A stretch of DNA of 24,358 bases from Nitrospirota bacterium (GTDB taxonomy: Bacteria > Nitrospirota > Thermodesulfovibrionia > Thermodesulfovibrionales > Dissulfurispiraceae), in NCBI GenBank assembly GCA_040754455.1, contig JBFMCP010000040.1, forward strand, positions 1-24,358. Direction: 5' to 3'. The notes under the pieces are model-generated. The model was not told the DNA's origin, searched no databases, and saw nothing but the letters and a program-made list of their open reading frames with translations. Positions 2,867 through 24,241 of this stretch are shown here, piece by piece; the first letter of the stretch is position 1, and each line of letters begins with the position of its first letter. A program made the position numbers and the translations under genes.

Positions 2867-3757
2867 ATGAAGTCGAATTTTTGCGCTGACCCCGGCGAAG
2901 ATAAAAAGCTCACCTTTCGCTTTGAGCAATCATTGAAAAAAGGAGTGACCCCGCATACTGTTGCGTTCTTCCGGAAAATCATTTATGATCACTATGAAAA
3001 GCACCGGCGCCCTTTTGCCTGGCGCATGACTGAAGACCCCTATCGTATTCTTGTTTCAGAGATCATGCTCCAGCAGACACAGACCGAAAGGGTCAGGGAG
3101 AAATACGAGCAATTCATTACCGCCTTTCCGAGTTTCAGGGCACTCGCCAGAGCGCCGCTGCAGAAGGTGCTCAGCGTATGGCAGGGCATGGGGTATAACC
3201 GCCGCGCCATCGCCTTAAAGGAGCTTGCCGACGTCGTGGTCAGGGAGTATAAGGGGAAGCTCCCTTCCACTCACGATGAGTTGCGGAAGCTCCCCGGCGT
3301 CGGCCCCTATACGGCATCGGCGATTGCGGCTTTTGCCTTCAATCAGCCTGTGCTCCTGATCGAAACCAATATCAGAACAGTGTTTATCCATCTCTTCTTT
3401 CAAGACCGGGATGAGGTAACCGACAGAGAGATTCTCCCCCTGATCGAGCTGACGCTCGATGTCGCCAATCCCCGAATATGGTACAACGCCCTGATGGATT
3501 ACGGTGCGATGCTGAAGAAATATCACCAGAATCCTGGCAGGAGAAGCGCACACTATAAACGGCAGACGCCCTTCGAGGGATCGGACCGCCAGATGCGCGG
3601 CGCGCTCCTGAAGGTGATTATCGAACATCCCGGGATTTCGGAACAGAAAATTATACAGATGGTTGATGCTCCAAGAGAAAGGCTCAAGCAAAATCTCAAC
3701 AAGCTGCGGGAAGAGGGCTTCATCAAACGGCAGGGCAGAAGACTGACTGTTGCCTAA
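2867..3757 (+). CDS. mutY: MutY-like HhH-GPD A/G-specific adenine glycosylase, short form without the Fe-S cluster
   Basis: Motifs WR...PY.ILVSEIMLQQTQ, WQGMGYNRRA, HhH LPGVGPYTA and NALMDYGA. The start may be 2807; 2867 is preferred because an extended -10 lies just upstream. Confidence 0.8.
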   Translation: MKSNFCADPGEDKKLTFRFEQSLKKGVTPHTVAFFRKIIYDHYEKHRRPFAWRMTEDPYRILVSEIMLQQTQTERVREKYEQFITAFPSFRALARAPLQKVLSVWQGMGYNRRAIALKELADVVVREYKGKLPSTHDELRKLPGVGPYTASAIAAFAFNQPVLLIETNIRTVFIHLFFQDRDEVTDREILPLIELTLDVANPRIWYNALMDYGAMLKKYHQNPGRRSAHYKRQTPFEGSDRQMRGALLKVIIEHPGISEQKIIQMVDAPRERLKQNLNKLREEGFIKRQGRRLTVA

Positions 3758-5115
3758 TCCTCTGCCAGTCCGTGCTTCTTTAACTTTCTCCAGAGCGACA
3801 CCCGGTCGATGCCGAGAATCTGTGCCGCCAGGGTCTTGTTGCCGCCCACCTCATTCATCACCCACTGAATATAGGCAATTTCCTGATCTTCAAGGGAAGG
3901 GATCTTGCCGTCCTTCTTTCTGAAGGTCTTTATATTCAGTTCCCGCAGGTCTTCGGGGAGATGGGCGATCTCGATCGAAGCGCCGTTCGAGAGGGCAACG
4001 CCCCGCTCAATGATATTTTCGAGCTCACGCACATTGCCGGGGAAGTCATAGTTCATAAGCAGTGAGAGTACGTCCGGAGATATTTCTGCGATAGACTTGT
4101 TCATGAGCGCTGCATACTTTTTGAGGAAATAATAGCTGAGCACCGGTATATCCTCTCTCCGTTCAGAAAGAGGGGGGATGTGGAGGGAAACGACATTCAG
4201 CCTGAAGTAGAGGTCCTGCCTGAAATGCCCGCTCCGCAGCGCATCATGGATATCCCGGTTGGTTGCGGCGATAAACCGCACATCCACCCGGGCCGGTTTT
4301 GTCGCCCCTACTCTCAGGACCTCCTTTTCCTGAATTACCCTGAGGAGCTTCACCTGCATGGGAGAGGGCATCTCGGTGATCTCGTCGAGGAAGAGGGTCC
4401 CTCCGGAGGCCATCTCGATCAATCCCTTCTTCAAGGTGGTCGCGCCGGTAAAGGCGCCTTTCTCGTGGCCGAAGAGCTCGTTTGAGAGCAATTCTTCGGT
4501 GAAGGCACCGCAGTTGATTGCAAGGTAGGGACCTTCGGAGCGCTTGCTGTTGAAGTGGATATATTTTGCGAAGAGCTCCTTGCCGGTGCCGCTTTCACCG
4601 CTGATCAGGACATTGCAGTCCGTCGGCGCAATCTGGCGCGCGGTATCGAGGAGCTGCTGCATCCGTGGATCCTGGGTGATGATCTTCACCTTTCCCTGGT
4701 ATGCCTCGATCTGGGCTCTGAGCTGGCTGTTCTCTCTCCTGAGGCGGACCTTCTCGAACGCCTCCCGCACTACCTTCCTCACCTCATCGAGCTTGAAGGG
4801 CTTCGCGATATAGTAGAAGGCACCGTGCTTCATGGCATCGACGGCGGATTGCAGCGTGGCGTATCCGGTGATCATGATGATCTCGGTATCGGGATGGAGC
4901 TCACGGCTTTTCTTGAGAATCTGCATGCCGTCCACCTTTTCCATCTTCAGGTCGGTCAGCACTACATCGAACTGCTGCTCCTCGAGCAGTTTGAGGGCGT
5001 TCTGGCCGCTCTGTGTTCCGGTGACGGTATATCCCTCTTTCTTCATCACATGCTCGAGATTCTTGAGCGCTATCTTTTCATCATCGACAATCAATATTCT
5101 GGCATGGTTCTGCAT
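3754..5115 (-). CDS. Sigma54-dependent two-component response regulator (NtrC/AtoC family)
   Basis: REC (DD, D in TDLKM, T, K in KPF), Walker A GESGTGKE, GAFTGA, LFLDEI, FPGNVREL and a C-terminal Fis HTH. Confidence 0.95.
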   Translation of the reverse strand: MQNHARILIVDDEKIALKNLEHVMKKEGYTVTGTQSGQNALKLLEEQQFDVVLTDLKMEKVDGMQILKKSRELHPDTEIIMITGYATLQSAVDAMKHGAFYYIAKPFKLDEVRKVVREAFEKVRLRRENSQLRAQIEAYQGKVKIITQDPRMQQLLDTARQIAPTDCNVLISGESGTGKELFAKYIHFNSKRSEGPYLAINCGAFTEELLSNELFGHEKGAFTGATTLKKGLIEMASGGTLFLDEITEMPSPMQVKLLRVIQEKEVLRVGATKPARVDVRFIAATNRDIHDALRSGHFRQDLYFRLNVVSLHIPPLSERREDIPVLSYYFLKKYAALMNKSIAEISPDVLSLLMNYDFPGNVRELENIIERGVALSNGASIEIAHLPEDLRELNIKTFRKKDGKIPSLEDQEIAYIQWVMNEVGGNKTLAAQILGIDRVSLWRKLKKHGLAED

Positions 5116-5118
5116 TGC

Positions 5119-6630
5119 TTAACTCCTCTCGTGCTGTTTCGGCAGAGGCAGCCGTATGAGAAAGACCGTTCCTTTTCCGACCTCGCTGTCGACGGCGATG
5201 CAGCCGTCATGTTCCTCTATAATTTCATGGACAATGGAAAGGCCCAGTCCCGATCCCTTTCCGACATCCTTGGTCGTGAAAAAAGGATCGAATACCTTCG
5301 GCAGCAGTTCGGGAGGAATACCTGCTCCCGTATCCCGTATCTCGATATCAACCGTATCGTCCTCGACGGTGCACTTCCCGTGGTACTTCAGATAATTGTA
5401 GATCTCCGGCCCGTTCTCCTCGATCTTGTCGATCGCCCGGCGCCGCTTGGCGCTGATGAATATTTTCCCTTCATCGTGAATCGCCTCGAGGGCATTTTTG
5501 ATCAGGTTCAGAAAGACCTGCTGTATCCGCTGCTTGTCGGCGAAAATGAAGATATAATCGGGAACAGCGACAGTTATTTCCACTTTCGCCGGTATCTGCC
5601 CCTTGATGAAGCGCAGGGTCTCCTCGATGAGCTTTTTCAGCGGAAGCATCTCCTTACGGAAATCCTGCTTCCTCGAAAATTCGAGAAGGGAACGGACAAT
5701 GTTCCGTGCCCGGTCGGTCTGCTCATTGATCTGCGCGAGGAGCTCTTTTTTGTATTCTATATCATTTTCTTCGATCTCCTCGGAGAGAATCTGAGAGGAG
5801 GTCGATATGTTTGAAAGAGGGTTATTGAGCTCATGGGCGACGCCGGAAAGGAGGGTGCCGAGGGAAGCGAGCTTTTCGGATTGTATAAGGTGCCGCTGCC
5901 GCAGCTCGAGCTCTTTCAGCATTTTGTTGAAGGCGTTGGTCAGTGAAATGATCTCCCGGTCTTTCGAATCGATCCGGATTTTTTCGAACCTGCCGTCGGC
6001 AATAATCTCCATACTCTCTTCGAGCCGCTTGAGCGGCCTCACTACGATTCTCGACAGCACCTGACCGATGACAATTCCCAGAAAGGAGAGGGCAAGAATG
6101 GAGAGAATGAGTGTGCTCTGTGAATTGGCCAGAAGCACCTGGAGGTTTCTCCGTTCGGCCTTTGCAATTTCTTCGGCGATGTTCACAATGTCCTTTCCGA
6201 TCACGCGTATCTTCCCCTCCAGGATTTCGCGTTGTGCCCACGCCTGTTTGTCGAGCGCTGCATATGCCTCGATGAGCTTTTTGTATTCACCGAGGTCGTA
6301 CTGCAGTGTGCTGATCTGGAAGGACGTGGCAATGGTATAAAATTCCTTGCTGTTGCGGGCGAGCGATTCCTGTGCTGTGGTGATGTAGTGTATGTTCTCC
6401 TGATAATCCGATTCCTGGCCATAGAGGAAATAATTCTTTTCAAATCGCCTGATCTCGAGCGCGGTGTTGAAAAACTCGGCAACCGCCTCACCCGACATGA
6501 CCTTTTTTTCGACAGACCTGAGCTCCATGAAGTTGAAGATGGCGAGCCCGACGATAATAATAACAATGGCATAGTAGCCGAGGATGATCTTTTGCCTGAT
6601 GCTCGAGTAGTAGAGAAAGCGCCTGAACAT
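5119..6630 (-). CDS. Membrane sensor histidine kinase (2 TM, HAMP, HisKA, HATPase)
   Basis: H-box AHELNNPL, N-box NLIKNA, DTGAGI, FDPFFTTK and GSGLGL. Confidence 0.95.
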   Translation of the reverse strand: MFRRFLYYSSIRQKIILGYYAIVIIIVGLAIFNFMELRSVEKKVMSGEAVAEFFNTALEIRRFEKNYFLYGQESDYQENIHYITTAQESLARNSKEFYTIATSFQISTLQYDLGEYKKLIEAYAALDKQAWAQREILEGKIRVIGKDIVNIAEEIAKAERRNLQVLLANSQSTLILSILALSFLGIVIGQVLSRIVVRPLKRLEESMEIIADGRFEKIRIDSKDREIISLTNAFNKMLKELELRQRHLIQSEKLASLGTLLSGVAHELNNPLSNISTSSQILSEEIEENDIEYKKELLAQINEQTDRARNIVRSLLEFSRKQDFRKEMLPLKKLIEETLRFIKGQIPAKVEITVAVPDYIFIFADKQRIQQVFLNLIKNALEAIHDEGKIFISAKRRRAIDKIEENGPEIYNYLKYHGKCTVEDDTVDIEIRDTGAGIPPELLPKVFDPFFTTKDVGKGSGLGLSIVHEIIEEHDGCIAVDSEVGKGTVFLIRLPLPKQHERS

Positions 6631-6726: not shown

Positions 6727-8739
6727 TTACTTGGTGAGCACTGTGTCGATTACCTCGTCCAGATAATCGGTGAAGTGAATGGTCATTCCTTTTTTCATCT
6801 CCCCGGTCAATTCCTCGAGGTCGGGTCTGTTCCTGGAAGGCAGGATGACGGCCTTTATCCCTGCGCGCCGGGCTGCCGCGAGCTTTTCCCGTATGCCGCT
6901 GACCTGAAGCACTCTTCCGGTAAGGGTTATCTCGCCGGTCATGGCGACGTCCCTGCGGGCGGGCCTGTTGGTGAGGAGTGAAATGAGCGCCATGGCAATG
7001 GTAATCCCTGCGGAAGGGCCGTCCTTCTGGATAGTGCCGGACGGGACATGAATATGGATATCGTGGTGCTCAAAGAAGTCTTCAGGGATGCCGAACACGG
7101 CAGCATTGCTCCGCACATAGCTGAGGGCGGCCTGTGCGGACTCCCTCATCACTTCACCGAGCGAGCCGGTCAGAATAAGCTCTTTTCTGCCTTTCATCCG
7201 CGCCGCCTCGACAAAGATGATATCTCCTCCGGTCTCGGTTAGCACCAGCCCGGTCGTAACGCCGACCCGGTCATGTTCTCCAGCAGTTTCGTAATGGTAG
7301 AGGGGACGCCCCAGATAGTGCTCAATGAGAGCAGGGGTGATGACCAGAGGTTTTGACTGCCCGCTGCTGGCAGCGCGGTCCTGAACGATCTCCTTTGCCG
7401 TCTTTCTGAAGATGGCGGCGATCTTTCGCTCGAGATTTCTGGTTCCCGACTCATGCGTATACTCCTGAATTATTTTGTAGAGCACCTCCTCGGTAAATTC
7501 AGGAGCATAACCGCATAATCCCTTATCGTTGAGCTGCCGCGGGATAATGAACTGCGAGGCTATGTGCACCTTCTCTTCAGGGGTATAGCCGCTGAATTCG
7601 ATCACCTCCATGCGATCCCTGAGCGGGGCCGGTATGCTCTCGACCGTGTTTGAAGTGAGAATGAACATCACCTCCGAGAGGTCGAAGGGAACGTCGAGAT
7701 AGTGATCGACAAAGCTGCGGTTCTGTTCGGGGTCCAGCACCTCCAGCAGCGCCGACGCCGGGTCTCCCTTGAAGTCATGGCCTATCTTGTCCAGCTCATC
7801 AAGCATGATGACAGGGTTGGAGGACCCCACGCGGCGTATTTCTTCGATAATCCTTCCGGGCTTTGCGCCTACATAGGTGCGGCGGTGCCCCCGTATCTCC
7901 GCCTCGTCCCTCATCCCGCCCAGCGCGATCCGTACGAAATGCCTCCCCAGGGCTTTTGCAACGGTTCTCCCCATTGAGGTCTTTCCTGTCCCCGGCGGGC
8001 CGGCAAAACAGAGTACCGAGCTGTGTGTTGTGCTCATCATCACGCGGTTCTCAAGCGCCTGTTTGACGGCGGCACGTACCTCCTCGAGCTTGAAAGGCTT
8101 TGCGATATACGAGAAGGCGCCCTTTTTCATAGCTTCCACTGCAGAGGGAACGGTGGCATATCCGGTGATCATGATCACCCGGGTGTCCGGCTGTTGTGCG
8201 CGAATGTTCTCAAGGACCTCCATGCCGTCCACGCCGGGCATCTTGAGGTCGGTGATAATGACATCAAAGCGGGTGGTGCGAAGCTTGTTCAAGGCATCGG
8301 TGCCATCCGTTGCGACCGCCACCTCGTAGTTTTCCCGAGCCAGTATATGGGTCAGGTTCTTTCTCGCGATCTCTTCATCGTCGACAACAAGAATACGCGG
8401 CGGCGTATCCAGTTTGAGGATTTTTACGGCGAGATGTTCGAGAATCCTCTCTTTAACGCTCGTGAGGCCGTAGTGACTCTCCGTCATTATATTCTCTGCG
8501 CGCCTGAGATCGAGGTTGTCCTCGGTTTTCTTGTTCCACGGCAAAGTAACAAGGTAATCGATATACGTAAAGCCGATCGTGTACTCTGCGGTTGAGGGGC
8601 TGATTTTAGAGAGGGTCTCGAGTTCCTGAAGGGCAATGCTCTCTACGGAGGAAGGCATCCGTACCGCGATGATCTTCTGCCTGAGCTCCTCCAGGGCCTC
8701 ATCGTGTAGCTCTCCCTCTGATTTTTTGAAGAATCCCAT
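6727..8739 (-). CDS. lon: Lon (S16) ATP-dependent protease with an inserted receiver domain and no N-terminal domain
   Basis: [21 protein letters not shown] insert at about aa 115-230, Walker [26 protein letters not shown], catalytic KDGPSAG and IREK. Confidence 0.92.
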
Positions 8740-10033: not shown

Positions 10034-11125
10034 ATGCATGACGTGGTCAATGTAGCAGCTAATTTTATCAATCTCGATGCAGTGAATCTCATTTATCTTT
10101 TTCTCGTAGGATTCGTCGGCGGCCTCGTGAGCGGGTTCATCGGCTCGGGTGGCGCGTTCGTCCTTACCCCCGGCATGATGAGCCTGGGCGTCCCCGGCCT
10201 TGTTGCCGTGGCGAGCAATATGTGCCACAAATTTCCCAAGGCGCTGGTAGGAGCGATCAAGCGTGCGAAATACGGCCAGGTTGATGTCAAACTGGGTATT
10301 GTTCTCGGTGTATCGGCTGAGGCCGGCGTTCTCTACGGTGCGCACATCCAGGAAAGCATCAAGAAAGCTTTCGGCGACGCAGGCTCAAACCTTTACGTCA
10401 GCGTGGCTTTTGTGGTGATCCTTGCAGTCGTTGGAGGTTTTGTGTTGAGGGATGCCTGGAAGACATATAAGTCAGGCAATGCACACGAAGAAGAAAAAGT
10501 AACAAAATTGGCAAAATGGGTACAGTCGATAAATATTCCTGGAACGATGGTCTATTTCAAAAGCCTGAACGCAAAGGTTTCTGTTCTTTTCACCATTCCC
10601 CTCGGCTTTGCAACCGGCATGCTCGCTGCTACCATCGCGGTCGGCGGCTTTATTGGCGTTCCTTCCATGATCTACGTTCTCGGTGCGCCGAGTCTTATGG
10701 CATCGGCGACTGAGCTGGTCATTGCTTTTGTTATGGGTGTAGGTGGATCCTTTAAATATGCATTGCACGGTCTCGTCGACATCCGCCTCGCCATGATCAT
10801 CCTGGCAGGCTCGCTCTTCGGCATTCAGTTGGGCGCAATCGGCACTACCTATGTAAAGCCCTTCATGATCAAGGTGGTCATGGGTGTTATCATGGTTATC
10901 GTCCTCTTCAGCCGTGGCCTGATGGTCCCGGTCTACCTTTCCCAGCTCGGTCTTATCACAAAGCTGAGTGATACAACGGTAAAGGCGTTGAAGAGCACCA
11001 GCTTCGCCATCATGATCTTCGCGCTTGCTCTCGGTGCATTCATCGTCCTCCGCGCTATGTGGCAGGGCCGCAGGGCTGAGCGTGAGCTGGCGGCAAAACA
11101 GGTTCTGGAGCATGGTAAAATCTAA
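10034..11125 (+). CDS. TauE/SafE (DUF81/TSUP) family sulfur-compound transporter
   Basis: GFVGGLVSGFIGSGGAFVLTP, second repeat IAVGGFIGVP, multiple TM helices. Confidence 0.88.
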   Translation: MHDVVNVAANFINLDAVNLIYLFLVGFVGGLVSGFIGSGGAFVLTPGMMSLGVPGLVAVASNMCHKFPKALVGAIKRAKYGQVDVKLGIVLGVSAEAGVLYGAHIQESIKKAFGDAGSNLYVSVAFVVILAVVGGFVLRDAWKTYKSGNAHEEEKVTKLAKWVQSINIPGTMVYFKSLNAKVSVLFTIPLGFATGMLAATIAVGGFIGVPSMIYVLGAPSLMASATELVIAFVMGVGGSFKYALHGLVDIRLAMIILAGSLFGIQLGAIGTTYVKPFMIKVVMGVIMVIVLFSRGLMVPVYLSQLGLITKLSDTTVKALKSTSFAIMIFALALGAFIVLRAMWQGRRAERELAAKQVLEHGKI

Positions 11126-11997: not shown

Positions 11998-12072
11998 TAA
12001 TCGGAATTAAGCTGACAAGAGAGAGTAAAGGTAAAGACCCGGAGCTTCATGTTCCGGCCCGGTGCGGACTTT

Positions 12073-13359
12073 TCAGTTCCTCTTCAGAACGAGGACGTGC
12101 ACAGAACAGGAGATGCAGGGATCGTAGCTCCTGATGATCTTTTCACACTCCCTCTTCAGGTAGTCGGCAGGCTTCTCAAGGTTTTTCTGAAGGAAGGCAT
12201 GAATATCCTTCTCCATGTGCCCGAGGTTCTGGGACGTAGGCGGAATGAGGGTGCACGCCTTGACGTATCCGTTATCATCGAGCTCATAGCGGTGGATGAG
12301 CATGCCGCGCGGCGCTTCGGTGATCCACGTTGCGGTGCCGCTCCGCGGACTGTATTCGACAAAGGCCTTTGCAGGCTCTTCATAGTCCCTGATGAGGCGG
12401 ACCGCTTCATGAAACGCGAAAGACAGCTCGGCAGACCGTGCGATAATGCCCATCCCGGTGTTATGCAGGGGAACGAGAGTTCCGGTTTCCCTGATGATGC
12501 TCTTCACCTCAGGAGGCAGCATTTCAAAATTCAGATTGAAACGCGCCAGCGGGCCCACGAGATACGGTGTCATCGTTGTATTGCGCTGTACAGCCGAGTG
12601 GAGCGCTGTTGATCGCTCGACCTGATGTTCGCGGAGTGCGCCAAAAAACTCTTCCATGGTCATGTCCAGCCCTCTGTTCGACACCACCCGACCTTCGTTC
12701 ATGGGATACTCTTCGGGGTGTCTGAGGGAGACGTATTCCATATCCCGCTCGATACCGCCGAAGGGGAGCCCCGCCGCCCACCTGATGGCATGCAGAGATT
12801 CCTCATAAGCCTTTTCAAGGTCGTCAATGAGTGCGGTCAGGCTTTTCTTTTTCGGAACGCCGAAGAACCCGCCTGTCCGTACCGAAACAGGATGGATCGG
12901 TCTCCCTCCTAGTACGCTCAGAAGATCGTTGCCGATCTTTTTAAAATGAAGCCCCTTCTTTGCAAGCGGCAGGTATTCACTTTTCGTCCATGCGCTCTCT
13001 GCGCCGTAGAAATCGGGCCCCTGAAGCAGGTAGATGTGCAGCGCATGGCTTTCGATCCACTCGCCGGTATAGAAGAGCCTGCGGAGGAGGCGTATCTGCG
13101 GGTCCACATCCACGCCGAATATTTTTTCTACTGCGTGAGCGGAGCTCATCTGGTACGCCACCGGACAGATGCCGCATATCCGTGCGGTAAAATCGATGAT
13201 ATCCTGGTGTGGCCTCCCCCGGAGAAAGGATTCGAAAAAACGGGGCGACTCGAAGATCGAGACATTGAGCCTGCTGATCCCGCCATCTTTTATTTCGACG
13301 AGGAGGCCGCCTTCTCCCTCAACCCGTGACAGATAATCGATTCTTATTCTCTTTTTCAT
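12073..13359 (-). CDS. Group 3b [NiFe] hydrogenase (sulfhydrogenase) large/alpha subunit
   Basis: RVEGEG, L1 RICGICP, EAPRG and L2 DPCISCSVH. Confidence 0.93.
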   Translation of the reverse strand: MKKRIRIDYLSRVEGEGGLLVEIKDGGISRLNVSIFESPRFFESFLRGRPHQDIIDFTARICGICPVAYQMSSAHAVEKIFGVDVDPQIRLLRRLFYTGEWIESHALHIYLLQGPDFYGAESAWTKSEYLPLAKKGLHFKKIGNDLLSVLGGRPIHPVSVRTGGFFGVPKKKSLTALIDDLEKAYEESLHAIRWAAGLPFGGIERDMEYVSLRHPEEYPMNEGRVVSNRGLDMTMEEFFGALREHQVERSTALHSAVQRNTTMTPYLVGPLARFNLNFEMLPPEVKSIIRETGTLVPLHNTGMGIIARSAELSFAFHEAVRLIRDYEEPAKAFVEYSPRSGTATWITEAPRGMLIHRYELDDNGYVKACTLIPPTSQNLGHMEKDIHAFLQKNLEKPADYLKRECEKIIRSYDPCISCSVHVLVLKRN

Positions 13360-13405
13360 GATGCCTCAGTTGCGATGCACACACGCATCGACCCCTTCAG
13401 ATCCT

Positions 13406-14176
13406 TTATGTAGGGGAAGCGGCTTTGTATTTTTCTTTTCTGTATGCATAGGTATTCATTTTGTCGATCATCTGCATACATTCATTCTGCGAGTAACCGA
13501 ACTGCTTGAAGACAGTGAAAAGCGAATCGATGTTCGCGCCTTCTTTCGGGCCGAAACATCCATAGCAGGGCCGGTCGAGGGAAGGACAGAGCACCCCGCA
13601 TCCGGCTTTGGTGATCGGTCCAAGGCATGGCTCCGATTGTGAAACCAGAATGCAGGGGATTCCCTTTTGCTTGCACTCCATGCACAGGGCGTATGTGGGA
13701 ACGGGCGGTCTCCTTCCCAGCAGAAAAGAGGTGAGCGTTTTCAAAATGGCGCTGTTATCGGGCGGACACCCCCAGAGCTCGTAGTCCACATGCACATGCT
13801 CTGATATGGGATCGGACGTCGCGAGGGTCTCGATGACCTCAGGCGAGGGATAGACGCTCCTTTTATATTCTGCTGCGCTTGCCCAGTTCTTCAACGCCTG
13901 CACCCCGCCGCAGGTCGCACATGCGCCGATGCTGATCATGAACGTTGACCGTTCGCGTACATCGATGATCTCCTCCACCTGCCGGTCAGTAGAGATGGAC
14001 CCCTCTATGACGGCGATGTCGAAGTGACCGGCGAGGGGCTTATCGGATACTTCGCGGAAGTACGCGACATCGAACACCTCCAGGATGCCCAGGAGCTGTT
14101 CCTCCAGGTTCAGGATGCTCAGCTGGCAGCCGTCGCAGGAGGTGAACTTGAAGACCCCGATCCTCGGCTTTTTCAT
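13406..14176 (-). CDS. Group 3b [NiFe] hydrogenase small/delta subunit
   Basis: MKKPRIGVFKFTSCDGCQL, GACAT.GG, GCPP and a C-terminal Cys cluster. The start is set at 14176, 2 nt past the gamma stop, rather than 14368. Confidence 0.9.
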   Translation of the reverse strand: MKKPRIGVFKFTSCDGCQLSILNLEEQLLGILEVFDVAYFREVSDKPLAGHFDIAVIEGSISTDRQVEEIIDVRERSTFMISIGACATCGGVQALKNWASAAEYKRSVYPSPEVIETLATSDPISEHVHVDYELWGCPPDNSAILKTLTSFLLGRRPPVPTYALCMECKQKGIPCILVSQSEPCLGPITKAGCGVLCPSLDRPCYGCFGPKEGANIDSLFTVFKQFGYSQNECMQMIDKMNTYAYRKEKYKAASPT

Positions 14177-14178
14177 CG

Positions 14179-15039
14179 CTACACCTCGCTTACCGCCAAA
14201 AACCGTGCCACGTCGGTCAATCTGAAAACAGGGCCGTCCTTGCAGACGAACGTGGGGCCGAACATGCAGTGCCCGCAGGTTCCTACTCCGCAGTTCATAT
14301 TTCTTTCCATGGAGATGAATATCTTCTCCTCCGGAATACCCATTTCGAGCAGACCTCTGATCATGCACTTCATCATCACTTCAGGCCCGCACATAAAGAC
14401 TACCGTATTAAGGGGATTAAGAGTGATTCTTCCCAGGAGCGATGAGATAAGACCCACCTCCCCTTTCCAGTATTCCTCCGGGTCGGTCTTATCAACGGTG
14501 AGATACACACGAAAGAACTTGCGGTAGCGTGGGAATTCATCTCTGAAGATTACGTCTTTCGGCGTCTTCGCTCCGTACAGCAGGACAGGAGCTTCAGATA
14601 ACTTCGGGCATTGCTGATCGTTCTTTGAAGGATGATTGCTCTTTGCGAGCAGCCGCACCACGGGCCGCAGAGGCGCAATGCCCAGACCTCCGGCGATGAT
14701 GAGCAGGCTCCTGCCGTCAGCCTCCTCCAGAGGCCATCCGCTGCCGAAAGGCCCTCGCAGTCCCACCGTATCTCCGGAGGACAGTTTTGAGAGCGCAGTG
14801 GTGACATTTCCGGCGACTCGTATGGTGTGTGTCAGTTCCCTGTCACCGGGAGAGCTGCTGATGGAAATGGGCGCCTCACCGACACCGGGAAGGTAAATCA
14901 TATTGAACTGCCCTGGTCTGAAGCGGTATTCTCCCACTGTCCTGGTGCTGTTCAATCTTATTGCATACGTTGAGGTGTCTCTTGTCTCTTTCCTGATCCA
15001 TCGTATGGTGGCGGGCTGCGGGATCAGCTTATCGTACAT
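14179..15039 (-). CDS. Group 3b hydrogenase gamma subunit (FAD/NAD(P)-binding, 2Fe-2S; AsrB-like)
   Basis: PGQFNM, GEAPISISS, RGPFG, AGGLGIAP, CGPE and CGVGTCGHC..VCKDGP. Confidence 0.92.
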   Translation of the reverse strand: MYDKLIPQPATIRWIRKETRDTSTYAIRLNSTRTVGEYRFRPGQFNMIYLPGVGEAPISISSSPGDRELTHTIRVAGNVTTALSKLSSGDTVGLRGPFGSGWPLEEADGRSLLIIAGGLGIAPLRPVVRLLAKSNHPSKNDQQCPKLSEAPVLLYGAKTPKDVIFRDEFPRYRKFFRVYLTVDKTDPEEYWKGEVGLISSLLGRITLNPLNTVVFMCGPEVMMKCMIRGLLEMGIPEEKIFISMERNMNCGVGTCGHCMFGPTFVCKDGPVFRLTDVARFLAVSEV

Positions 15040-16135
15040 TTCTCAACGCCTCCAGTTCTTCGGTAATATCTATGCCGGCCGGGCACCATGTGATGCAGCG
15101 TCCGCATCCCACGCATCCCGGCAGGCCGAATTGCGCACCGGTGTATGCCAGTTTGTGCGATATCCAGTGGCGATAGCGGGCGCTTCTCGAATATCTGAAA
15201 TTACCGCCGTGCACACTCGCAAAATTCGTAGAAAAGCAGGAGTCCCATTTGCGCACTCTTACCCCGGAGGTCTCAGGGGGGCTCCTCAGCAGACCATCGA
15301 GATGGGGGATTTCATAAATGGAATTGCAGAAGCAGGTAGGGCAGACTTGCGTACAATTGCCGCATTCGAGGTCCCGTGCTGCTATCTCATTCCAACAGGG
15401 ATGATCAAGGTTTCGATAAATGATATCCGGCAGCTCATGGGCCGCAATGGTTTTCTTCATCATCCGAGCACAACGATCTACGCGCATCCTTTTTCCCTTC
15501 CAGTCCGCATCATTTGGCGCTTCGGCAGACAGACGACCCACCATCTCCTTTCCTCGTTCAGTCGCTGCTTCGAGCAGGAAGGAGTCCTCCAACTCTGTCA
15601 TGCAAATATCGAAATAGTCCTTGACCTCAGGGCCGGTACCCAAGGAGGCGCAGAAGCAGGTATCGCCGGGGAAGAGGCAATTAAACGCTATTATTAAAGA
15701 ATTAGATCGAAGGTGATGATAGGTGCGGTCCTGTACCGGACCTTCCAGAAATACCCTGTCATAGAGCTTCAAGGCGGTGAGATCGCACCCCCTGACTCCC
15801 AGCAGCGCCACGGGACGGTCTCGTGCCGGAAGAGGATCTATTACTATTCCGCTCTTTCCTCTCCTGAATGCGAAAAGCTCTTTTTCCGGTGGATGGAGGA
15901 CCCTTTTGAAGGAGTCTGGACCGGGCGCAAATGAGAAGATGTCTGCATCATCCCCTTTTGAAAGCCTATAAGAGCCGGGGCTTTGATGATCTCTGTATCC
16001 CGCGGGGATATCGTCGAACACAATCTCCCTCATAACGACAACTCCGTCATCAACGGCAGGACCGATGAGCCTGTATGACTCTTGGAGAAGGGAAATAAAA
16101 GCCTCAAAGGAATCTTTTCTTATTTTCTTTTTCAC
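15029..16135 (-). CDS. Group 3b hydrogenase beta subunit (4Fe-4S; AsrA-like)
   Basis: VRGCDL, CFCAS, ECGNCTQVCPTCFC, WDSC and CVGCGRCITWCP; GTG start. Confidence 0.9.
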   Translation of the reverse strand: MKKKIRKDSFEAFISLLQESYRLIGPAVDDGVVVMREIVFDDIPAGYRDHQSPGSYRLSKGDDADIFSFAPGPDSFKRVLHPPEKELFAFRRGKSGIVIDPLPARDRPVALLGVRGCDLTALKLYDRVFLEGPVQDRTYHHLRSNSLIIAFNCLFPGDTCFCASLGTGPEVKDYFDICMTELEDSFLLEAATERGKEMVGRLSAEAPNDADWKGKRMRVDRCARMMKKTIAAHELPDIIYRNLDHPCWNEIAARDLECGNCTQVCPTCFCNSIYEIPHLDGLLRSPPETSGVRVRKWDSCFSTNFASVHGGNFRYSRSARYRHWISHKLAYTGAQFGLPGCVGCGRCITWCPAGIDITEELEALRNVR

Positions 16136-16508: not shown

Positions 16509-16574
16509 GGAATCAAGATCACCGCATTCGTGAGATCTGGCTTTGAGCCAAAGATTCATCAAAAGGAGGACAAC

Positions 16575-18221
16575 ATGTTTTGTTATCAGTGTGAACAGGC
16601 TGCAAGGGGAACCGGATGTTCGGCAGTCAGCGTCTGCGGCAAGGACCCTGATGTGGCGGCGCTCCAGGACCTTCTGGTCTATGCGCTCCAGGGGCTTGCC
16701 CTTGTTGCGCATGAGGGAAGGAAGGTCGGCGTGAGCGACAAGGGAGTGAACGAATTTACGGTCAAAGGACTCTTCTCGACGCTCACCAACGTCAACTTCG
16801 ACGCAGCCCGCTTTGTCGGGCTCATCAATAAGACCGTTGAGCTCAGGGAAGGCCTTGCGGCAAAGGTGGAAAAAGCCAGCGGCAACGTTTCCTTCGCAGA
16901 GGGACCCGCAGTGTTTAAGCCTGAAGCATCAGTGGAAGGGCTGTTGCGGCAGGCAGAGAGGGCAGGGCTGAAATCCGATCCCTCTATCGACCCCGATATC
17001 CTTTCGCTCCAGCACACGACGCTGTTCGGCGTGAAAGGTATCTCCGCCTATGTCGACCACGCGCAGATACTGGGCAAGAGCGATGACGCGGTCTATGCCT
17101 ATATCCACGAGGCCCTCGCATCGATGACCAGAAGAGACCTCGGCCTCAATGATTGGGTGGGCATTGCCCTGAAGTGCGGCGAGACCAACCTCAAGGCAAT
17201 GGAACTGCTCGATGCGGCACATACCGAGCGGTACGGACATCCTGTTCCGACCAAGGTCCCTCTCGGCGCAAAGAAGGGAAAGGCACTCCTCGTTTCGGGC
17301 CACGATCTTATGGACCTTGAAGAGATACTCAAGCAGAGCGAGGGCAAGGGCATATATGTCTACACTCACGGCGAGATGCTCCCGACCCATGCCTATCCTC
17401 AGTTGAAAAAATATCCACACTTCTACGGCCATTACGGCACGGCATGGCAAAATCAGCATAAGGAATTCGCCACGTTCCCGGGTGCCATTGTGATGACGAC
17501 CAACTGTCTGCAGGAGCCGGAGCAGTCATATAAAGACAACATCTTCACTACCGGTCTTGTCGGCTGGCCCGGCGTGACGCATATCGTCGACAAGAACTTT
17601 GCGCCGGCGATCGAGCGGGCGCTCGCCCTTCCCGGGTTCACTGAAGACGTTCCGGGCAAGACTGTGATGACGGGCTTTGCGAGGAATGCGGTGATGGGCG
17701 TTGCCGACAAGGTTATCGAGGCGGTCAAGAATAAACATATCCGCCATTTCTTCCTGGTCGCGGGGTGCGACGGATCGAAGCCGGGGAGGAACTACTACAC
17801 CGAATTTGTCGAAAAAGTGCCGAAAGATTGCGTGGTGCTGACCCTGGCCTGCGGCAAGTTCCGCTTCTTCGACAAAGAGATGGGCGATATCGGCGGCATA
17901 CCGAGACTGCTCGATATCGGCCAGTGCAACGATGCTTACTCGGCCATCCAGATTGCGGTAGCGCTCTCAAAGGCCTTCGGTGTCGGCGTCAACAACCTGC
18001 CGCTCTCGCTGGTGCTCTCATGGTATGAGCAGAAGGCGGTGGCGATCCTGCTGACGCTCCTGTACCTAGGCATCAAGAACATCCGCATCGGTCCTTCGCT
18101 TCCGGCGTTCATCACCCCGAACGTTCTGAACGTGCTGGTGCAGAATTACAATATCATGCCTATCACCACGCCTGATAACGATCTCAAGGCGATACTGGGA
18201 GAGAGCGTCAAAGCAGCGTAA
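16575..18221 (+). CDS. hcp: Hybrid cluster protein (hydroxylamine/NO reductase), class I
   Basis: MFCYQCEQ with C-x2-C-x8-C-x5-C, SGHDL, THGEMLP, GCDG, GQCND and SWYEQKA; AAGGAGG RBS before the ATG at 16575. Confidence 0.96.
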   Translation: MFCYQCEQAARGTGCSAVSVCGKDPDVAALQDLLVYALQGLALVAHEGRKVGVSDKGVNEFTVKGLFSTLTNVNFDAARFVGLINKTVELREGLAAKVEKASGNVSFAEGPAVFKPEASVEGLLRQAERAGLKSDPSIDPDILSLQHTTLFGVKGISAYVDHAQILGKSDDAVYAYIHEALASMTRRDLGLNDWVGIALKCGETNLKAMELLDAAHTERYGHPVPTKVPLGAKKGKALLVSGHDLMDLEEILKQSEGKGIYVYTHGEMLPTHAYPQLKKYPHFYGHYGTAWQNQHKEFATFPGAIVMTTNCLQEPEQSYKDNIFTTGLVGWPGVTHIVDKNFAPAIERALALPGFTEDVPGKTVMTGFARNAVMGVADKVIEAVKNKHIRHFFLVAGCDGSKPGRNYYTEFVEKVPKDCVVLTLACGKFRFFDKEMGDIGGIPRLLDIGQCNDAYSAIQIAVALSKAFGVGVNNLPLSLVLSWYEQKAVAILLTLLYLGIKNIRIGPSLPAFITPNVLNVLVQNYNIMPITTPDNDLKAILGESVKAA

Positions 18222-18256: not shown

Positions 18257-18288
18257 AGGAGAGGGGAGGCGACTCCCCTCTCCTTTTT
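18257..18288 (+). terminator. Rho-independent terminator after hcp
   Basis: AGGAGAGGGGAG-GCGA-CTCCCCTCTCCT perfect 12-bp stem, GNRA loop and T-run. Confidence 0.85.
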
Positions 18289-18290
18289 GT

Positions 18291-18935
18291 TTATTTCTTT
18301 TTATTCTTCTTCGCCTGAGCTTTCTTTTCCGCCTGTTTTTGCTCCTGCTCTTTTGCCTGTTCCTGCTCTTTCTCTTTCGCCGCCTTGTACGCCATCATGC
18401 CGCCTCTCAGATACTTCACATTTGTGTAGCCGAGCATAGAGAGGTACATCTGCCCTGTTGCAGAGCGCGGCCCCGCGGCGCAATAGACGACGATCTCGGT
18501 GATCTTCAGTGCAGGCAGCTTGTCGAGGTTTTTCCGCATTTCTTCAAGAGGTATGTTGATGGCGTCAGGGATGTGCTCTTCGTTGTAGTCCTTTGCCCCC
18601 CGCAGGTCAATGGTGACGAGGCCGGGATTGTCCCTCTTTCTCGATGTGTATTCTTCATAGGTTATCGCATTGTAGGAGCCGGTGAGGGTCATCAGAAAGC
18701 GGGTCGCTGCATCGGCCTGGTACGCGTCGTTATAGGCGCGCCAGAGTTTATTGTTGCCCGGCTCAATGGTGATCGCCTTGCGGAGCACCTTCGTGGCGTC
18801 ACTGAACTCTCCTTTGTTATAGAGGTCGATTCCCTGCTTCAGGAGATCCTGCGCTGTCTCTGCAGAGACAGCAGGCGTCTGCGTCAACAGGAACAGGGCA
18901 AAGAGCACGCATGCAGAGAGAATTATTTTCTTCAT
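18291..18935 (-). CDS. Exported TPR + rhodanese (sulfurtransferase) domain protein
   Basis: Signal peptide (VSA); TPR-like GIDLYNKGEFSDA...AITIEP; IDLR...HIPDAINIP; active loop YCAAGPRS; LRGGM; Lys/Glu/Gln-rich tail. Confidence 0.88.
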   Translation of the reverse strand: MKKIILSACVLFALFLLTQTPAVSAETAQDLLKQGIDLYNKGEFSDATKVLRKAITIEPGNNKLWRAYNDAYQADAATRFLMTLTGSYNAITYEEYTSRKRDNPGLVTIDLRGAKDYNEEHIPDAINIPLEEMRKNLDKLPALKITEIVVYCAAGPRSATGQMYLSMLGYTNVKYLRGGMMAYKAAKEKEQEQAKEQEQKQAEKKAQAKKNKKK

Positions 18936-18937
18936 GG

Positions 18938-20275
18938 CTATTTCCTCCCCGCCTCTCGGCCTGTTTTCTGCGGTATTTTTTCTACGATGACCCTGCTGTT
19001 CGCCTTGAGCTCATTCGGAACGATGTCTTCCTTCCTCAGGAAGAGCGCTGCGTTGCCGTGGCAGGAATCGCAGGACCTGTTCTGCGGTGTGAGTCGCTGC
19101 ACGTTGTGGGGAGCGGCGTATTTCCATGTGGGGACAGTATTGAAGCCGGTCATCATATTCGGTCCGTAGGCAGAAGCGAGGTCAGGTGTTGTCGGCGCAT
19201 GCCGTACTACAACATACTCATAGGGCCGGTCGTTCCGGTAGTTCCTGCCGATCTTGAACGCCATGAAGGAATGGTCGATCTTATAAAAACGGGCTGTAAT
19301 TTTTCCATCTTCCTCCTTGTATTCGAGATGGCAGTTTTTGCAGTTCTTTGCAATGACAGAATGGCAGACATTGCATTGGAGCCGGTCGCCATGGATGGCG
19401 TGCTGCTCCACTGTTGTGTTCCCTTGCAGCACATCCTTATGGCACTCTTTGCAGTCAGGGAGGAGCGGATTATCATAGCGGTCCCGGAGCGGTGTGCCGG
19501 TCCCATGGAGAGCATTCTCCCTCTTATGGCAGCCGAGGCAGACCATGCCGGAAAGGCGGACATGCGTGTCGGCAGGAGCGCCGGGGTTTTGACCGTAAAA
19601 TTCGTCACCGGCGCGGGCGCTGTGGCAAATGCCACAGGTCATATCCTCGGGAGGAGTCTTTAAAAAGGTATGGCCTGCAAGCAGGCCGCCTTTTGCCGGA
19701 CCTTTCGGTCTGTTGACGTGGCAGTCGCCGCAGGAGGCGTGGCAAGAGTAGCAGTGGCCTTTGAAGATGCCCCCCAGTTCTTTGGGGCCGTCCCCTGTTT
19801 TATCGGGATTCCAGCGCTCTTTTAGGGGCTGCTTCATTCCCGAGGCGGTCATATGCAGGCTCGTTTTGAATCTGTTGACGATATCGGCATGGCACTGGGC
19901 GCAGACGTCCGGTTTTTCATCAGGGCTCCTGATGATGCCTTCATGCGCCTTTTTCATGTCCGTTGCCTTGCCGTCACCGTTGTGGCAGAACGTACAGCCC
20001 TGCGCATTGTGCGTCGAATTCAGAAATTCCTTGCTGCTGACGTAGACGCGCTCAAAAGGCTCCAACGGAGCCACTGCTTTAGCTCACCCTTCGCCTTCCG
20101 AAAGTTTTTTTGGCGGTTCGGGCAGCGCAGGCGCAAGAGATTTCAATTTTTCGAGATTCGTGTGGCAGTCGGCACATGAGTCCGCCTTCGCCTGCTGCAA
20201 GCAGAGCAGAGAGGACAAAAACAGGAGCACAGCGGCAGTCACTAAATTGAGGCGACAACAGTTCCGTCTTTTCAT
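18938..20275 (-). CDS. Exported 11-heme cytochrome c, predicted selenoprotein (UGA=Sec at codon 64)
   Basis: ORF 20275-20084 (signal peptide + CADCH) and ORF 20074-18938 (10 CxxCH) are in the same frame, joined by TGA-GCT-AAA-GCA. A SECIS-like hairpin follows. The downstream part has no RBS or signal peptide. Confidence 0.8.
20050..20083 (-). promoter_or_regulatory. Putative bacterial SECIS element
   Basis: mRNA UGA-GCUAAAGCAGU-GGCUCC-GUU-GGAGCC-UUUUGAGC has a perfect 6-bp upper stem starting 11 nt after the UGA, an apical GU, and a possible lower stem GCU.AAAG/UUUU.AGC. Confidence 0.7.
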
Positions 20276-20353
20276 ACCTTACCCTCCATAGTGGATTCCC
20301 CCTTTGCGAGACATGTGTCTACTAATTATAATTAATAGATAATATGTTTATTA

Positions 20354-20382
20354 AAGTTAGCAACAATGAAAGCAAATGTCAA
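20354..20382 (-). promoter_or_regulatory. Sigma70-type promoter for the cytochrome-rhodanese operon
   Basis: Minus strand TTGACA-17 nt-TAACTT with TG extended -10. Confidence 0.55.
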
Positions 20383-23563: not shown

Positions 23564-24241
23564 TCAGAGCCCTTTGTTCAGAAAGCCTTTCATGAGCGCA
23601 GCGGTGAACTGCTCCTCTATATTGACGCTATTACCGAAGAACCGGCTGTTCTTCTTGAGGATCTCGATGACACCATCAACATTAAGCAGGTGGCAGGGGA
23701 GTGCAGCAGAGGGATTAGAGCTGATAATGAAAAGAAGCTCCTTATTCGCTCCCACACGCCAGTAGTACCCGTTCTTGTCCTCGACAATAAAGATGAAGTG
23801 CGCTGTGCAGAGCTCCTTTAGAATGTTACCGTAGAGTGCCAGGAACTCCTTGTGCGCTATCTGTTTCGCTTCATAGACCCGTTTCCATTGAGGATTGGTG
23901 AATTCGACAATTGTATCGCCTTCCGAAGGTGTCCTCGGGGTGCGGCACTGGAATTGTACCAGATCGATATGGGCCCTCTCTGATTTGCGTGCAGGGTAGT
24001 GTTCGAGCCAGACGATCCTGTCCACCGGCCGGTTCGGGAGAAAGGTACGGTAGACCTCTGTGGCGATGCGACTGCAGACGTTCGTAAGCGATGCTCCTTT
24101 GTTGTCCTTCCTCTCGGTCATCATAACGCAGCAGACGCCGTTATCGTATTCCACGATATCGATATCATAGATGCCTTCGGGGATTTTCGGTGACGGGCGC
24201 GGTGCCGAGATCCGTATGGTACCGCTCTGCAGGAAATTCAT
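23564..24241 (-). CDS. Hypothetical protein
   Basis: 225-aa ORF with natural composition, the only long ORF in this stretch; no recognised family. Confidence 0.7.
   Translation of the reverse strand: MNFLQSGTIRISAPRPSPKIPEGIYDIDIVEYDNGVCCVMMTERKDNKGASLTNVCSRIATEVYRTFLPNRPVDRIVWLEHYPARKSERAHIDLVQFQCRTPRTPSEGDTIVEFTNPQWKRVYEAKQIAHKEFLALYGNILKELCTAHFIFIVEDKNGYYWRVGANKELLFIISSNPSAALPCHLLNVDGVIEILKKNSRFFGNSVNIEEQFTAALMKGFLNKGL

Follow-up and report, generated by a model that had tools for sequence, protein, structure and literature searches.

Does the in-frame UGA at nucleotides 20086-20084 of a Nitrospirota contig (JBFMCP010000040.1, assembly GCA_040754455.1) end a small cytochrome gene, or is it read as selenocysteine (Sec) inside a much longer one? 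The question arises on the minus strand of a stretch of 24,358 nucleotides (nt), here called the window, where an open reading frame (ORF) of 63 aa runs from ATG 20275 to this TGA and the same frame then meets no further stop until TAG 18940-18938. Comparison with related loci leads us to a graded answer. The segment 20275-18938(-) is very probably one gene for an exported 11-heme c-type cytochrome whose codon 64, UGA, is read as Sec; that grade belongs to the recoding alone. The fuller explanation, in which the recoded protein also acts as a sulfur reductase, is the best we can offer for the whole locus, and we hold it with moderate confidence. A single 445-aa protein with Sec64 had been proposed earlier from the letters of the window (the original prediction); it is now supported by a TGA that 78 of 80 related loci share at this column, by homologues with Cys, and by a conserved hairpin.

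Translation through the UGA gives 445 aa with 11 CxxCH heme-binding motifs, counted on the translation: CADCH before the TGA and ten more after it. The 63-aa ORF with its frame open beyond the TGA, the 11-heme product of 445 aa, and a hairpin 11 nt after the UGA, at 20072-20058, had all been part of the original prediction, and the coordinates and sequence bear them out. The gene is composed of the following elements.

18938-20275, minus strand: read-through coding sequence (CDS), 445 codons plus TAG; putative exported undecaheme c-type cytochrome with Sec codon 64, supported by Pfam and by homologues aligned across the TGA.
20183-20275, minus strand: predicted Sec-pathway signal peptide, residues 1-31, with MKRRN, a hydrophobic core, and AKA before DS; judged by eye.
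20162-20176, minus strand: heme-binding motif 1, CADCH, residues 34-38, encoded upstream of the UGA.
20084-20086, minus strand: in-frame UGA, proposed Sec64, in the motif S-E-G-x-G-U-(G/A)-G; TGA in 78/80 loci, Cys in some homologues.
20058-20072, minus strand: hairpin GGCUCC-GUU-GGAGCC, resembling a selenocysteine insertion sequence (SECIS), after an 11-nt spacer (20083-20073); comparative evidence.
19058-19996, minus strand: heme-binding motifs 2-11, residues 94-406, with conserved distal-ligand candidates; invariant C/H alignment columns.

The distribution of functions between the two pieces already favors a single product. The N-terminus (MKRRNCCRLNLVTAAVLLFLSSLLCLQQAKA/DS) reads by eye as a signal peptide, and C34, C37, and H38 of heme motif 1 are almost invariant among aligned homologues. 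By the same visual judgment, the part that follows the TGA (MAPLEPFERVYVSS...) is not hydrophobic. Heme attachment to c-type cytochromes happens outside the cytoplasm. Because the N-terminal piece holds the only export signal, together with heme 1, the ten downstream hemes would be made only within the read-through product, and a separate 378-aa decaheme protein that stays without an export signal would be nonfunctional. The downstream piece had also been described as free of any ribosome-binding site; here the claim divides, with the missing export signal upheld and the missing ribosome-binding site qualified by a purine-rich GAAGGCGAAGGG that lies 12-23 nt before GTG 20074, a possible start of that piece.

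Related loci show what selection has kept at the UGA. A scan of one genome per species returned at least 600 matching stretches. Relatedness was confirmed for 591 of 600, and the 80 best were retained together with flanks of 6 kb. By record label, most of them belong to Anaerolineae and Dehalococcoidia; Acidimicrobiia/Actinomycetota also occur, as do two Desulfobacterota records. The codon at the Sec column is TGA in 78/80 of these loci, which answers a check named in the original prediction, a count that gives no estimate for the whole family since the 80 are those closest to a Sec-type query. The two exceptions are L071, which is cut by a contig end, and L026, which has neither Sec nor Cys. 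Residues on both sides of the TGA are conserved in frame, typically as (L/E)S(E/S)G(E/V/P)G-U-GG..(A/P)P(L/V)E(A/P/V)WEKV, and upstream of it the related loci always encode a CxxCH motif and either a signal peptide or a lipobox. Two expectations about the protein were overturned by this comparison: Sec64 had been assigned to a flexible linker and instead stands in S-E-G-x-G-U-G-G, among the most conserved motifs of the family, and the type had been thought rare, whereas the 591 confirmed stretches in species-representative genomes make it a large family.

Deposited proteins tell the same story from the side of annotation. A protein search with the read-through query (U sent as C) found 210 proteins at an expectation value (E) <= 0.001 among 5921 candidates; 120 were listed, and all of these were aligned. 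No fewer than 107 of the 120 begin past the UGA column, and for 89 of these the start falls at query residue 68 or 71, as expected of a gene caller that runs into an in-frame stop; the predicted splitting of the gene by annotation is thus what the databases contain. Cys stands at or next to the UGA column in 8/120 (P0015, P0023, P0073, P0088, P0111, P0117, P0118, and P0121), the N-terminus of P0024 is unrelated, and P0096 is effectively truncated. When 50%-identity cluster representatives were scanned exhaustively, 562 clusters passed a threshold of E <= 0.001, and 121 passed E <= 1e-30. Among the 150 representatives listed, 78 begin right past the column, 23 align only further downstream, and 15 have Cys at it. 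As these alignments indicate, core members of the family keep Sec or Cys at the column, and some divergent branches no longer have it. The proposed check on this residue came out in favor of TGA or Cys being kept, apart from a minority of homologues with Trp or other residues. One deposited homologue, P0150, has Trp at the Sec column within the otherwise Sec-type context GEGWAGE.APLEAWEK, and the hairpin residues are still encoded there.

The hairpin begins exactly 11 nt past the UGA and consists of a 6-bp stem closed by a loop whose first letter is G. Comparison with related loci indicates that it is more than chance. In an alignment of 79 rows there are zero gaps between TGA and stem, and stem pairing is found in 89.1% of cells. 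Shuffling of the 3' letters yields 82.1 +/- 0.7%, with 0/500 shuffles as high as observed, and pairing drops to 27-55% once the 3' partner is slid by 1-3 columns. The covariation score is 0.178 versus 0.077 in shuffles (0/500). One pair of the stem reads CG 43 times and GC 30 times across the sequences; a second reads GC 63 times, GU 6 times, and AU 5 times. Seen at the protein level, the CG/GC pair is an amino-acid swap: codon +5 CCT (Pro) is accompanied by a G-initial codon +9 (Ala, Val, or Glu) in 43/43 cases, and codon +5 GCT (Ala) by a C-initial Pro codon +9 in 28/29. This Ala-Pro/Pro-Ala exchange, imposed by the SECIS stem, offers a clean case in which the structure of an RNA shapes the sequence of a protein.

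Synonymous choices within the stem and loop are constrained as well, with the remainder of the same genes as the codon-bias background. Pro +6 is CCG in 68/69 Pro codons (background 44%), Leu +7 is UUG in 59/62 Leu codons (15.5%), and Glu +8 is GAG in 73/74 Glu codons (51%); at codon +5, Ala is GCU in 29/30 and Pro is CCU in 43/45, against backgrounds of 14% and 12%. The loop-opening G falls in the third position of a Pro codon. At Glu +11, outside the hairpin, usage is even, with GAA in 34 and GAG in 32. Conservation at synonymous positions, named beforehand as a check, is therefore seen in the CCG/UUG/GAG bias, and compensatory change in the CG/GC pair. Kinship among the loci inflates these counts, yet several lines agree, and we read the comparative pattern as selection on the hairpin as RNA.

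The outlying loci and an independent model extend this pattern. In L026 (6040-6170, FVGLANKTEALEAWEKV), the only fetched locus with neither Sec nor Cys, the hairpin and the codon bias are gone, and GAA and GCA codons appear. L020 and L075 keep the UGA with other residues after it (PIPRSGELW) and carry a different 6-bp hairpin, UCCCCC-GGUC-GGGGGA, 10 nt past the UGA; the L075 fold has z = -3.64, with 0/200 shuffles as stable. These GC-rich hairpins lie at L020:6160-6207 and L075:6163-6210, and the records are labeled as metagenome-assembled genomes of a Chloroflexi bacterium and of an "uncultured bacterium." A covariance model, R1, built from 76 loci with the window, L020, and L075 left out, gave a sole hit in the window; it lies at 20074-20056(-) and scores 21.7 bits (rough E 1e-4), and the runner-up among 28 listed matches has 9.4 bits. 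In the mechanism we propose, this hairpin, by its 11-nt distance from the UGA and its loop-first G, would direct Sec decoding.

Several observations weigh against Sec at codon 64. Folded alone, the window sequence is unexceptional: z = 0.17 over 66 nt, with 99/200 shuffles at least as stable, and z = -0.18 over 48 nt, with 77/200. Rfam gave no SECIS or credible family, either across the whole window at gathering thresholds or within 19950-20150 at E <= 10, so the window by itself could not settle the SECIS reading. The 80 loci, the best of at least 591 relatives by similarity to a Sec-type query, are interrelated, and counts drawn from them are for these reasons neither unbiased nor independent. 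At the UGA column Trp occurs in 3/120 listed homologues (P0045, P0049, and P0055), and among the 150 listed representatives there are 6 with Trp, 17 with other residues, and 11 with a gap, so that the residue seems dispensable in parts of the family. Finally, the 24-kb window contains no tRNA gene, and no sel gene (selA/B/C/D) was found among its scanned ORFs. On this evidence the locus might instead be two genes, a pseudogene, or an assembly error, comprising a 63-aa monoheme cytochrome and a 378-aa decaheme protein from GTG 20074. Gene callers read it in this way, 107/120 listed homologues are deposited in this way, and both the purine-rich stretch before GTG 20074 and the lack of a sel gene among the scanned ORFs agree. 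Such a split is nevertheless scarcely credible given TGA in the same conserved motif, with the frame kept, in 78/80 loci of several phyla, together with full-length homologues that carry Cys, a downstream piece that lacks an export signal although its hemes must be attached outside the cytoplasm, and nucleotide-level constraint on the hairpin just past the TGA.

Alternatively, the UGA could be read as Trp, Cys, or Gly, through near-cognate decoding or a variant code, with the hairpin stimulating read-through without SelB. Trp at the column in some deposited homologues, among them P0150 with its Sec-type surroundings, speaks for this, as does the absence of sel genes from the scanned window ORFs. 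The Trp entries (P0150, P0045, P0049, and P0055) are either TGG mutants or cases of TGA rendered as Trp by the source pipeline. A variant genetic code was considered and rejected: TGA is the ordinary stop, at normal family ends, of 4/19 window genes checked (NiFe large subunit, DegQ, a Crp-like regulator, and ORF 23564-24241), from which we conclude that the code is standard. Near-cognate decoding also sits poorly with a family in which some homologues carry Cys where others carry UGA, the classical signature of a selenoprotein, and with a hairpin whose spacing and G-first loop are as expected of a bacterial SECIS, the spacing in Escherichia coli fdhF being 11 nt. The source lineage points the same way, Sec-type homologues of the Geobacter cytochrome selenoprotein MccSep having been reported in Thermodesulfovibrionia (Nitrospirota) (PMC13510729). 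For the window's DegQ, a 100%-identical protein is labeled Nitrospirota bacterium, and its relatives bear the labels Thermodesulfovibrionales and Dissulfurispiraceae. We regard decoding as a standard amino acid as very improbable and retain Sec64.

The read-through protein has the marks of a multiheme c-type cytochrome: 11 CxxCH motifs, Pfam matches above cutoff to Cytochrome_C7 (37.8 bits, cutoff 24.8) and Cytochrom_c3_2 (30.3 bits, cutoff 25), invariant His/Met columns, and a signal peptide judged by eye. Outside the motifs, ten His residues are conserved (H89, H111, H141, H202, H238, H257, H292, H295, H359, and H390), plus Met244, and the Sec/Cys64 column is, in the alignments, the sole conserved Cys-type residue outside the CxxCH motifs. 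An AlphaFold2 model from 53 aligned sequences (mean predicted local distance difference test, 81.0; predicted template modeling score, 0.77) is mainly helical in its N-terminal two-thirds and beta-rich around residues 310-360. Foldseek comparison of this model with the PDB gave 0/229 listed matches at E <= 0.001, the best being 5ze8 (E 0.16, template modeling score 0.12-0.14), and the cytochrome is therefore not assignable to a known fold. A PDB sequence search likewise returned chance-level matches only, with 5ze8 (E 0.064) the best cytochrome. The MccSep structures 9WT8-9WTC are possibly newer than the PDB copies searched by sequence and by fold.

The cytochrome gene is accompanied by expression signals upstream and by a second gene downstream, as follows.

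20325-20354, minus strand: promoter candidate, sigma-70-like (TTAATA, 18-nt spacer, TATAAT), upstream of the CDS; consensus match only.
20282-20287, minus strand: Shine-Dalgarno GGAGGG, 6 nt before ATG 20275; read from sequence.
18291-18935, minus strand: gene, with its ATG 2 nt past the cytochrome stop, for a secreted 214-aa protein that combines TPR and rhodanese (active-site loop CAAGPRS); Pfam Rhodanese, 69.3 bits.
18257-18284, either strand: palindromic terminator-like hairpin in the convergent gap between the rhodanese gene and hcp, 12 pairs of which 8 are G-C; consensus match only.

Sites of the promoter type number 3 in the sequence, against 1.9 expected in shuffles. Cytochrome and rhodanese likely form a two-gene operon that ends at the terminator-like hairpin 18257-18284. 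The gene that converges on the rhodanese gene from the other side, 16530-18221 (+), encodes a hybrid-cluster protein (Prismane, 556 bits), and the 12-bp palindrome could serve both strands as a terminator.

Rhodanese linkage recurs among the related loci. With rhodanese ORFs identified in the 80 loci by an ad hoc rhodanese profile, such an ORF is fused to the cytochrome or adjacent on the same strand in 54/80, and linkage or fusion to a rhodanese bearing the active-site Cys is one property expected of rhodanese-coupled sulfur oxidoreductases, a functional class and not a sequence family. Stricter clustering finds four-domain lipoproteins directly downstream in 29 loci and two-domain ones directly upstream in 21; L050 has a six-domain rhodanese ORF, and in-frame N-terminal rhodanese fusions occur in L024, L032, L048, and L060. 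A CxxG loop is present in 48/48 domains of 24 one- and two-domain rhodanese ORFs, and CxxGx[RK] in 93/112 domains of the three-, four-, and six-domain ORFs. The closest parallel to the window operon is P0004, 72% identical to the window cytochrome and fused at its C-terminus to an orthologue of the window rhodanese; this rhodanese part shares 67% identity with the window rhodanese, and the match begins past the latter's signal peptide. Other neighbors in the related loci are a divergent LysR regulator (32 loci), an NrfC-like 4Fe-4S protein of the twin-arginine translocation type (31), cytochrome b561 (13), NrfD (11), a CsoR-like repressor (11), and Ccm genes.

The tandem-rhodanese proteins that stand directly downstream of a cytochrome are secreted lipoproteins, with four domains in L006-L009, L012-L014, L021, L034, L035, and others, and six in L050. 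Nearly all of their domains have an active-site loop of the CxSGHR type, and the literature searched yielded no description of multi-rhodanese carriers beside a cytochrome.

What might such a pair do? We propose that the cytochrome works outside the cytoplasm as an oxidoreductase of sulfane sulfur (polysulfide or persulfide, with selenite as a further possibility), with Sec64, in the glycine-rich conserved loop SEGxGUGG, as its catalytic chalcogen nucleophile. The co-transcribed secreted rhodanese would bind sulfane sulfur as a persulfide and pass the sulfur to Sec64, and the resulting Se-S adduct would be resolved by electrons arriving along the heme chain. In many Chloroflexota relatives those electrons could come from a neighboring NrfC/NrfD-type or cytochrome-b quinol module; the direction may also be reversed, toward oxidation with quinone as acceptor. 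The sulfur chemistry, its direction (reduction or oxidation), and the electron donor in the source organism are all suggested by analogy.

Four features tell against this assignment or leave room for another. The functional argument draws on analogy to MccSep and to Sud/Psr and on gene linkage; 26/80 loci have no rhodanese, including 15 with at least 1.5 kb of sequence on both sides; the window operon has neither NrfCD nor cytochrome b; and the ten conserved His with Met244 could ligate all 11 hemes, so an open or Sec-ligated heme is possible without being required. The protein could be a true selenoprotein in which Sec64 is structural or redox-tuning, for instance the distal axial ligand of a c-type heme (His/Sec, possibly heme 1). 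We know of no precedent for a natural His/Sec heme. With Sec64 as a ligand, the cytochrome would be an electron-transfer wire or a thiosulfate- or sulfide-oxidizing enzyme of the His/Cys-heme type that delivers electrons to the quinone pool. Such a role accords with Sec/Cys64 being the only conserved Cys-type residue outside CxxCH, with conservation of the N-terminal module (heme 1, helix, SEGxGUGG) as a unit, with NrfCD and cytochrome b neighbors that function in both directions, and with the catalytic His/Cys-ligated hemes of the sulfur-oxidizing enzymes TsdA and SoxAX (PMC13510729, Discussion). We nonetheless consider it unlikely, since conserved His and Met suffice for all 11 hemes and since replacement by Trp or other residues in relatives fits lost catalysis more easily than a lost heme ligand. 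Sec64 as the sulfur-handling nucleophile remains the function we prefer. A bolder proposal makes the protein the first example of a second, evolutionarily independent class of Sec-and-heme chalcogen oxidoreductase, with Sec64 at or ligating a c-type heme and sulfane sulfur delivered by secreted multi-rhodanese lipoproteins. We advance this only tentatively and think it doubtful as it stands.

Were such an independent Sec-heme class real, it would point to overlooked sulfur or selenium respiration, and to Sec use, in hundreds of species of Chloroflexota (Anaerolineae, Dehalococcoidia), Acidimicrobiia, Nitrospirota, and Desulfobacterota. Annotation would explain the oversight, since the majority of copies are entered as truncated "cytochrome c3 family" proteins: the 107 of 120 listed homologues that start past the UGA were deposited without export signal, heme 1, and Sec. 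A protein profile combined with a SECIS model would mend hundreds of gene calls, and selenium biology would gain a large selenoprotein family. The missing polysulfide reductase of Geobacter was identified in August 2026 as MccSep (PMC13510729). A further Sec-multiheme enzyme, unrelated to MccSep and linked to rhodaneses, suggests that working on sulfane sulfur with Sec plus heme is a recurrent solution. The window protein also becomes a candidate for reducing or disproportionating sulfur in Anaerolineae and in Nitrospirota that resemble Thermodesulfovibrionia.

Truncated homologues also carry a telling name. The Joint Genome Institute (JGI) calls many of them "thiosulfate/3-mercaptopyruvate sulfurtransferase," though their listed Pfam domains include no rhodanese; the name was probably transferred from fused rhodanese-cytochrome members.

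The remainder of the window holds genes of other kinds. In the Lon protease encoded at 6727-8739 (-) (TIGR00763, 726 bits, matched over residues 231-668), the N-terminal part contains a response-regulator receiver domain (residues ~114-236). Next to its gene stand a histidine kinase gene at 5119-6630 and the gene of a sigma-54 response regulator at 3754-5115; fusion of Lon to a gating receiver is unusual. Four genes at 12073-16135 (-), for large, small, FAD/NAD-binding, and 4Fe-4S subunits, form a NiFe hydrogenase cluster that resembles cytoplasmic sulfhydrogenase-type enzymes, and a NuoB-like ORF at 134-655 has weak matches to the sulfhydrogenase delta subunit. The NiFe large subunit (12073-13359) was considered as a second selenoprotein and rejected on its Cys-type DPCISCSVH and normal TGA end; no second selenoprotein was found in the window. 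NCBIfam gave no match for the ORFs at 23564-24241 (-) (225 aa), 10034-11125 (+) (363 aa), and 12049-12612 (+) (187 aa). The 225-aa ORF has no Pfam match either, and the 187-aa ORF, which overlaps the hydrogenase large-subunit gene on the opposite strand, may be spurious.

How does this locus compare with systems already known? At the RNA level, the hairpin shares with bacterial SECIS elements such as that of E. coli fdhF its position as a stem-loop in the CDS directly 3' of the UGA, the 11-nt spacer, and a loop that opens with G (GU). It departs from the typical element in a loop of only 3 nt (GUU or GGU), in having no bulged U, and in matching no Rfam family.

The nearest protein precedent is the polysulfide reductase of Geobacter sulfurreducens, MccSep (ExtKL, GSU2937-2936), which is a selenoprotein of the multiheme cytochrome c type. 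It comprises a helical cap and an Ig-like stem at the C-terminus, and besides its five hemes it has a heme-ligating Cys239 and, in a D-G-U-P loop, Sec325 (PMC13510729). MccSep and the window protein are both periplasmic multiheme c-type cytochromes, by prediction in our case, with one Sec from an in-frame UGA and a SECIS-like stem-loop after it; both are routinely annotated as two genes, have Sec-type and Cys-type homologues, and occur in Nitrospirota and Desulfobacterota. The Geobacter cluster presumably also includes a rhodanese, ExtH. The differences are as clear: 11 hemes against five; Sec64 of 445, between hemes 1 and 2, against Sec325 within an Ig-like domain at the C-terminus; and, against the conserved heme-ligating Cys239, no conserved Cys outside CxxCH in the window protein save the Sec/Cys column. 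That the architecture would differ from ExtKL/MccSep had been foreseen, and the heme count, the Sec position, and the absence of a match to NF040886 agree.

Profile comparison extends this separation to other families. The passages on cytochrome-type selenoproteins in a 2026 review (PMC13188914) name ExtKL, the OTR-family octaheme cytochrome (TIGR04315), and the GSU2204-family CXXCH protein (NF041027); as far as those passages describe them, the latter two share with the window protein the CxxCH motifs and the status of bacterial selenoprotein and differ in heme number and Sec position. An NCBIfam scan at E <= 0.001 found no match of the window protein to ExtKL NF040886, OTR TIGR04315, or GSU2204 NF041027. 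The matches it did return at that threshold all lie far under cutoff: ExtM at 35.1 bits (cutoff 800), GSU2203 decaheme at 27.1 (325), and DmsE at 27.2 (192). ExtM (NF040943), from the Geobacter selenite/tellurite reduction operon, is the best of these, and the likeness is local, from residues 85-157 (hemes 2-3) to model positions 32-107; membership in ExtM was rejected at 35.1 bits against a cutoff of 800, with ~75/599 model positions covered. The "cytochrome" passages of the table in PMC13188914 do not include the window family, and we found no literature description of an 11-heme or rhodanese-linked Sec cytochrome, while the supplementary tables of PMC13510729 and PMC13188914 may list more families. 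By sequence comparison, then, the window protein represents a second multiheme cytochrome selenoprotein family, large, usually misannotated, and unrelated in sequence to MccSep.

The proposed division of labor has its closest functional analogue in the Sud/PsrABC system of Wolinella succinogenes, where a periplasmic rhodanese-like carrier supplies a respiratory polysulfide reductase that draws on quinol through NrfC/NrfD-type (PsrB/PsrC-like) subunits. Some related loci carry NrfC-like and NrfD genes as in Psr, and none stands beside the window operon. The catalytic subunit of Psr, which is cited in the Discussion of PMC13510729, is a molybdopterin enzyme, whereas here that place would be taken by a Sec-containing multiheme cytochrome.

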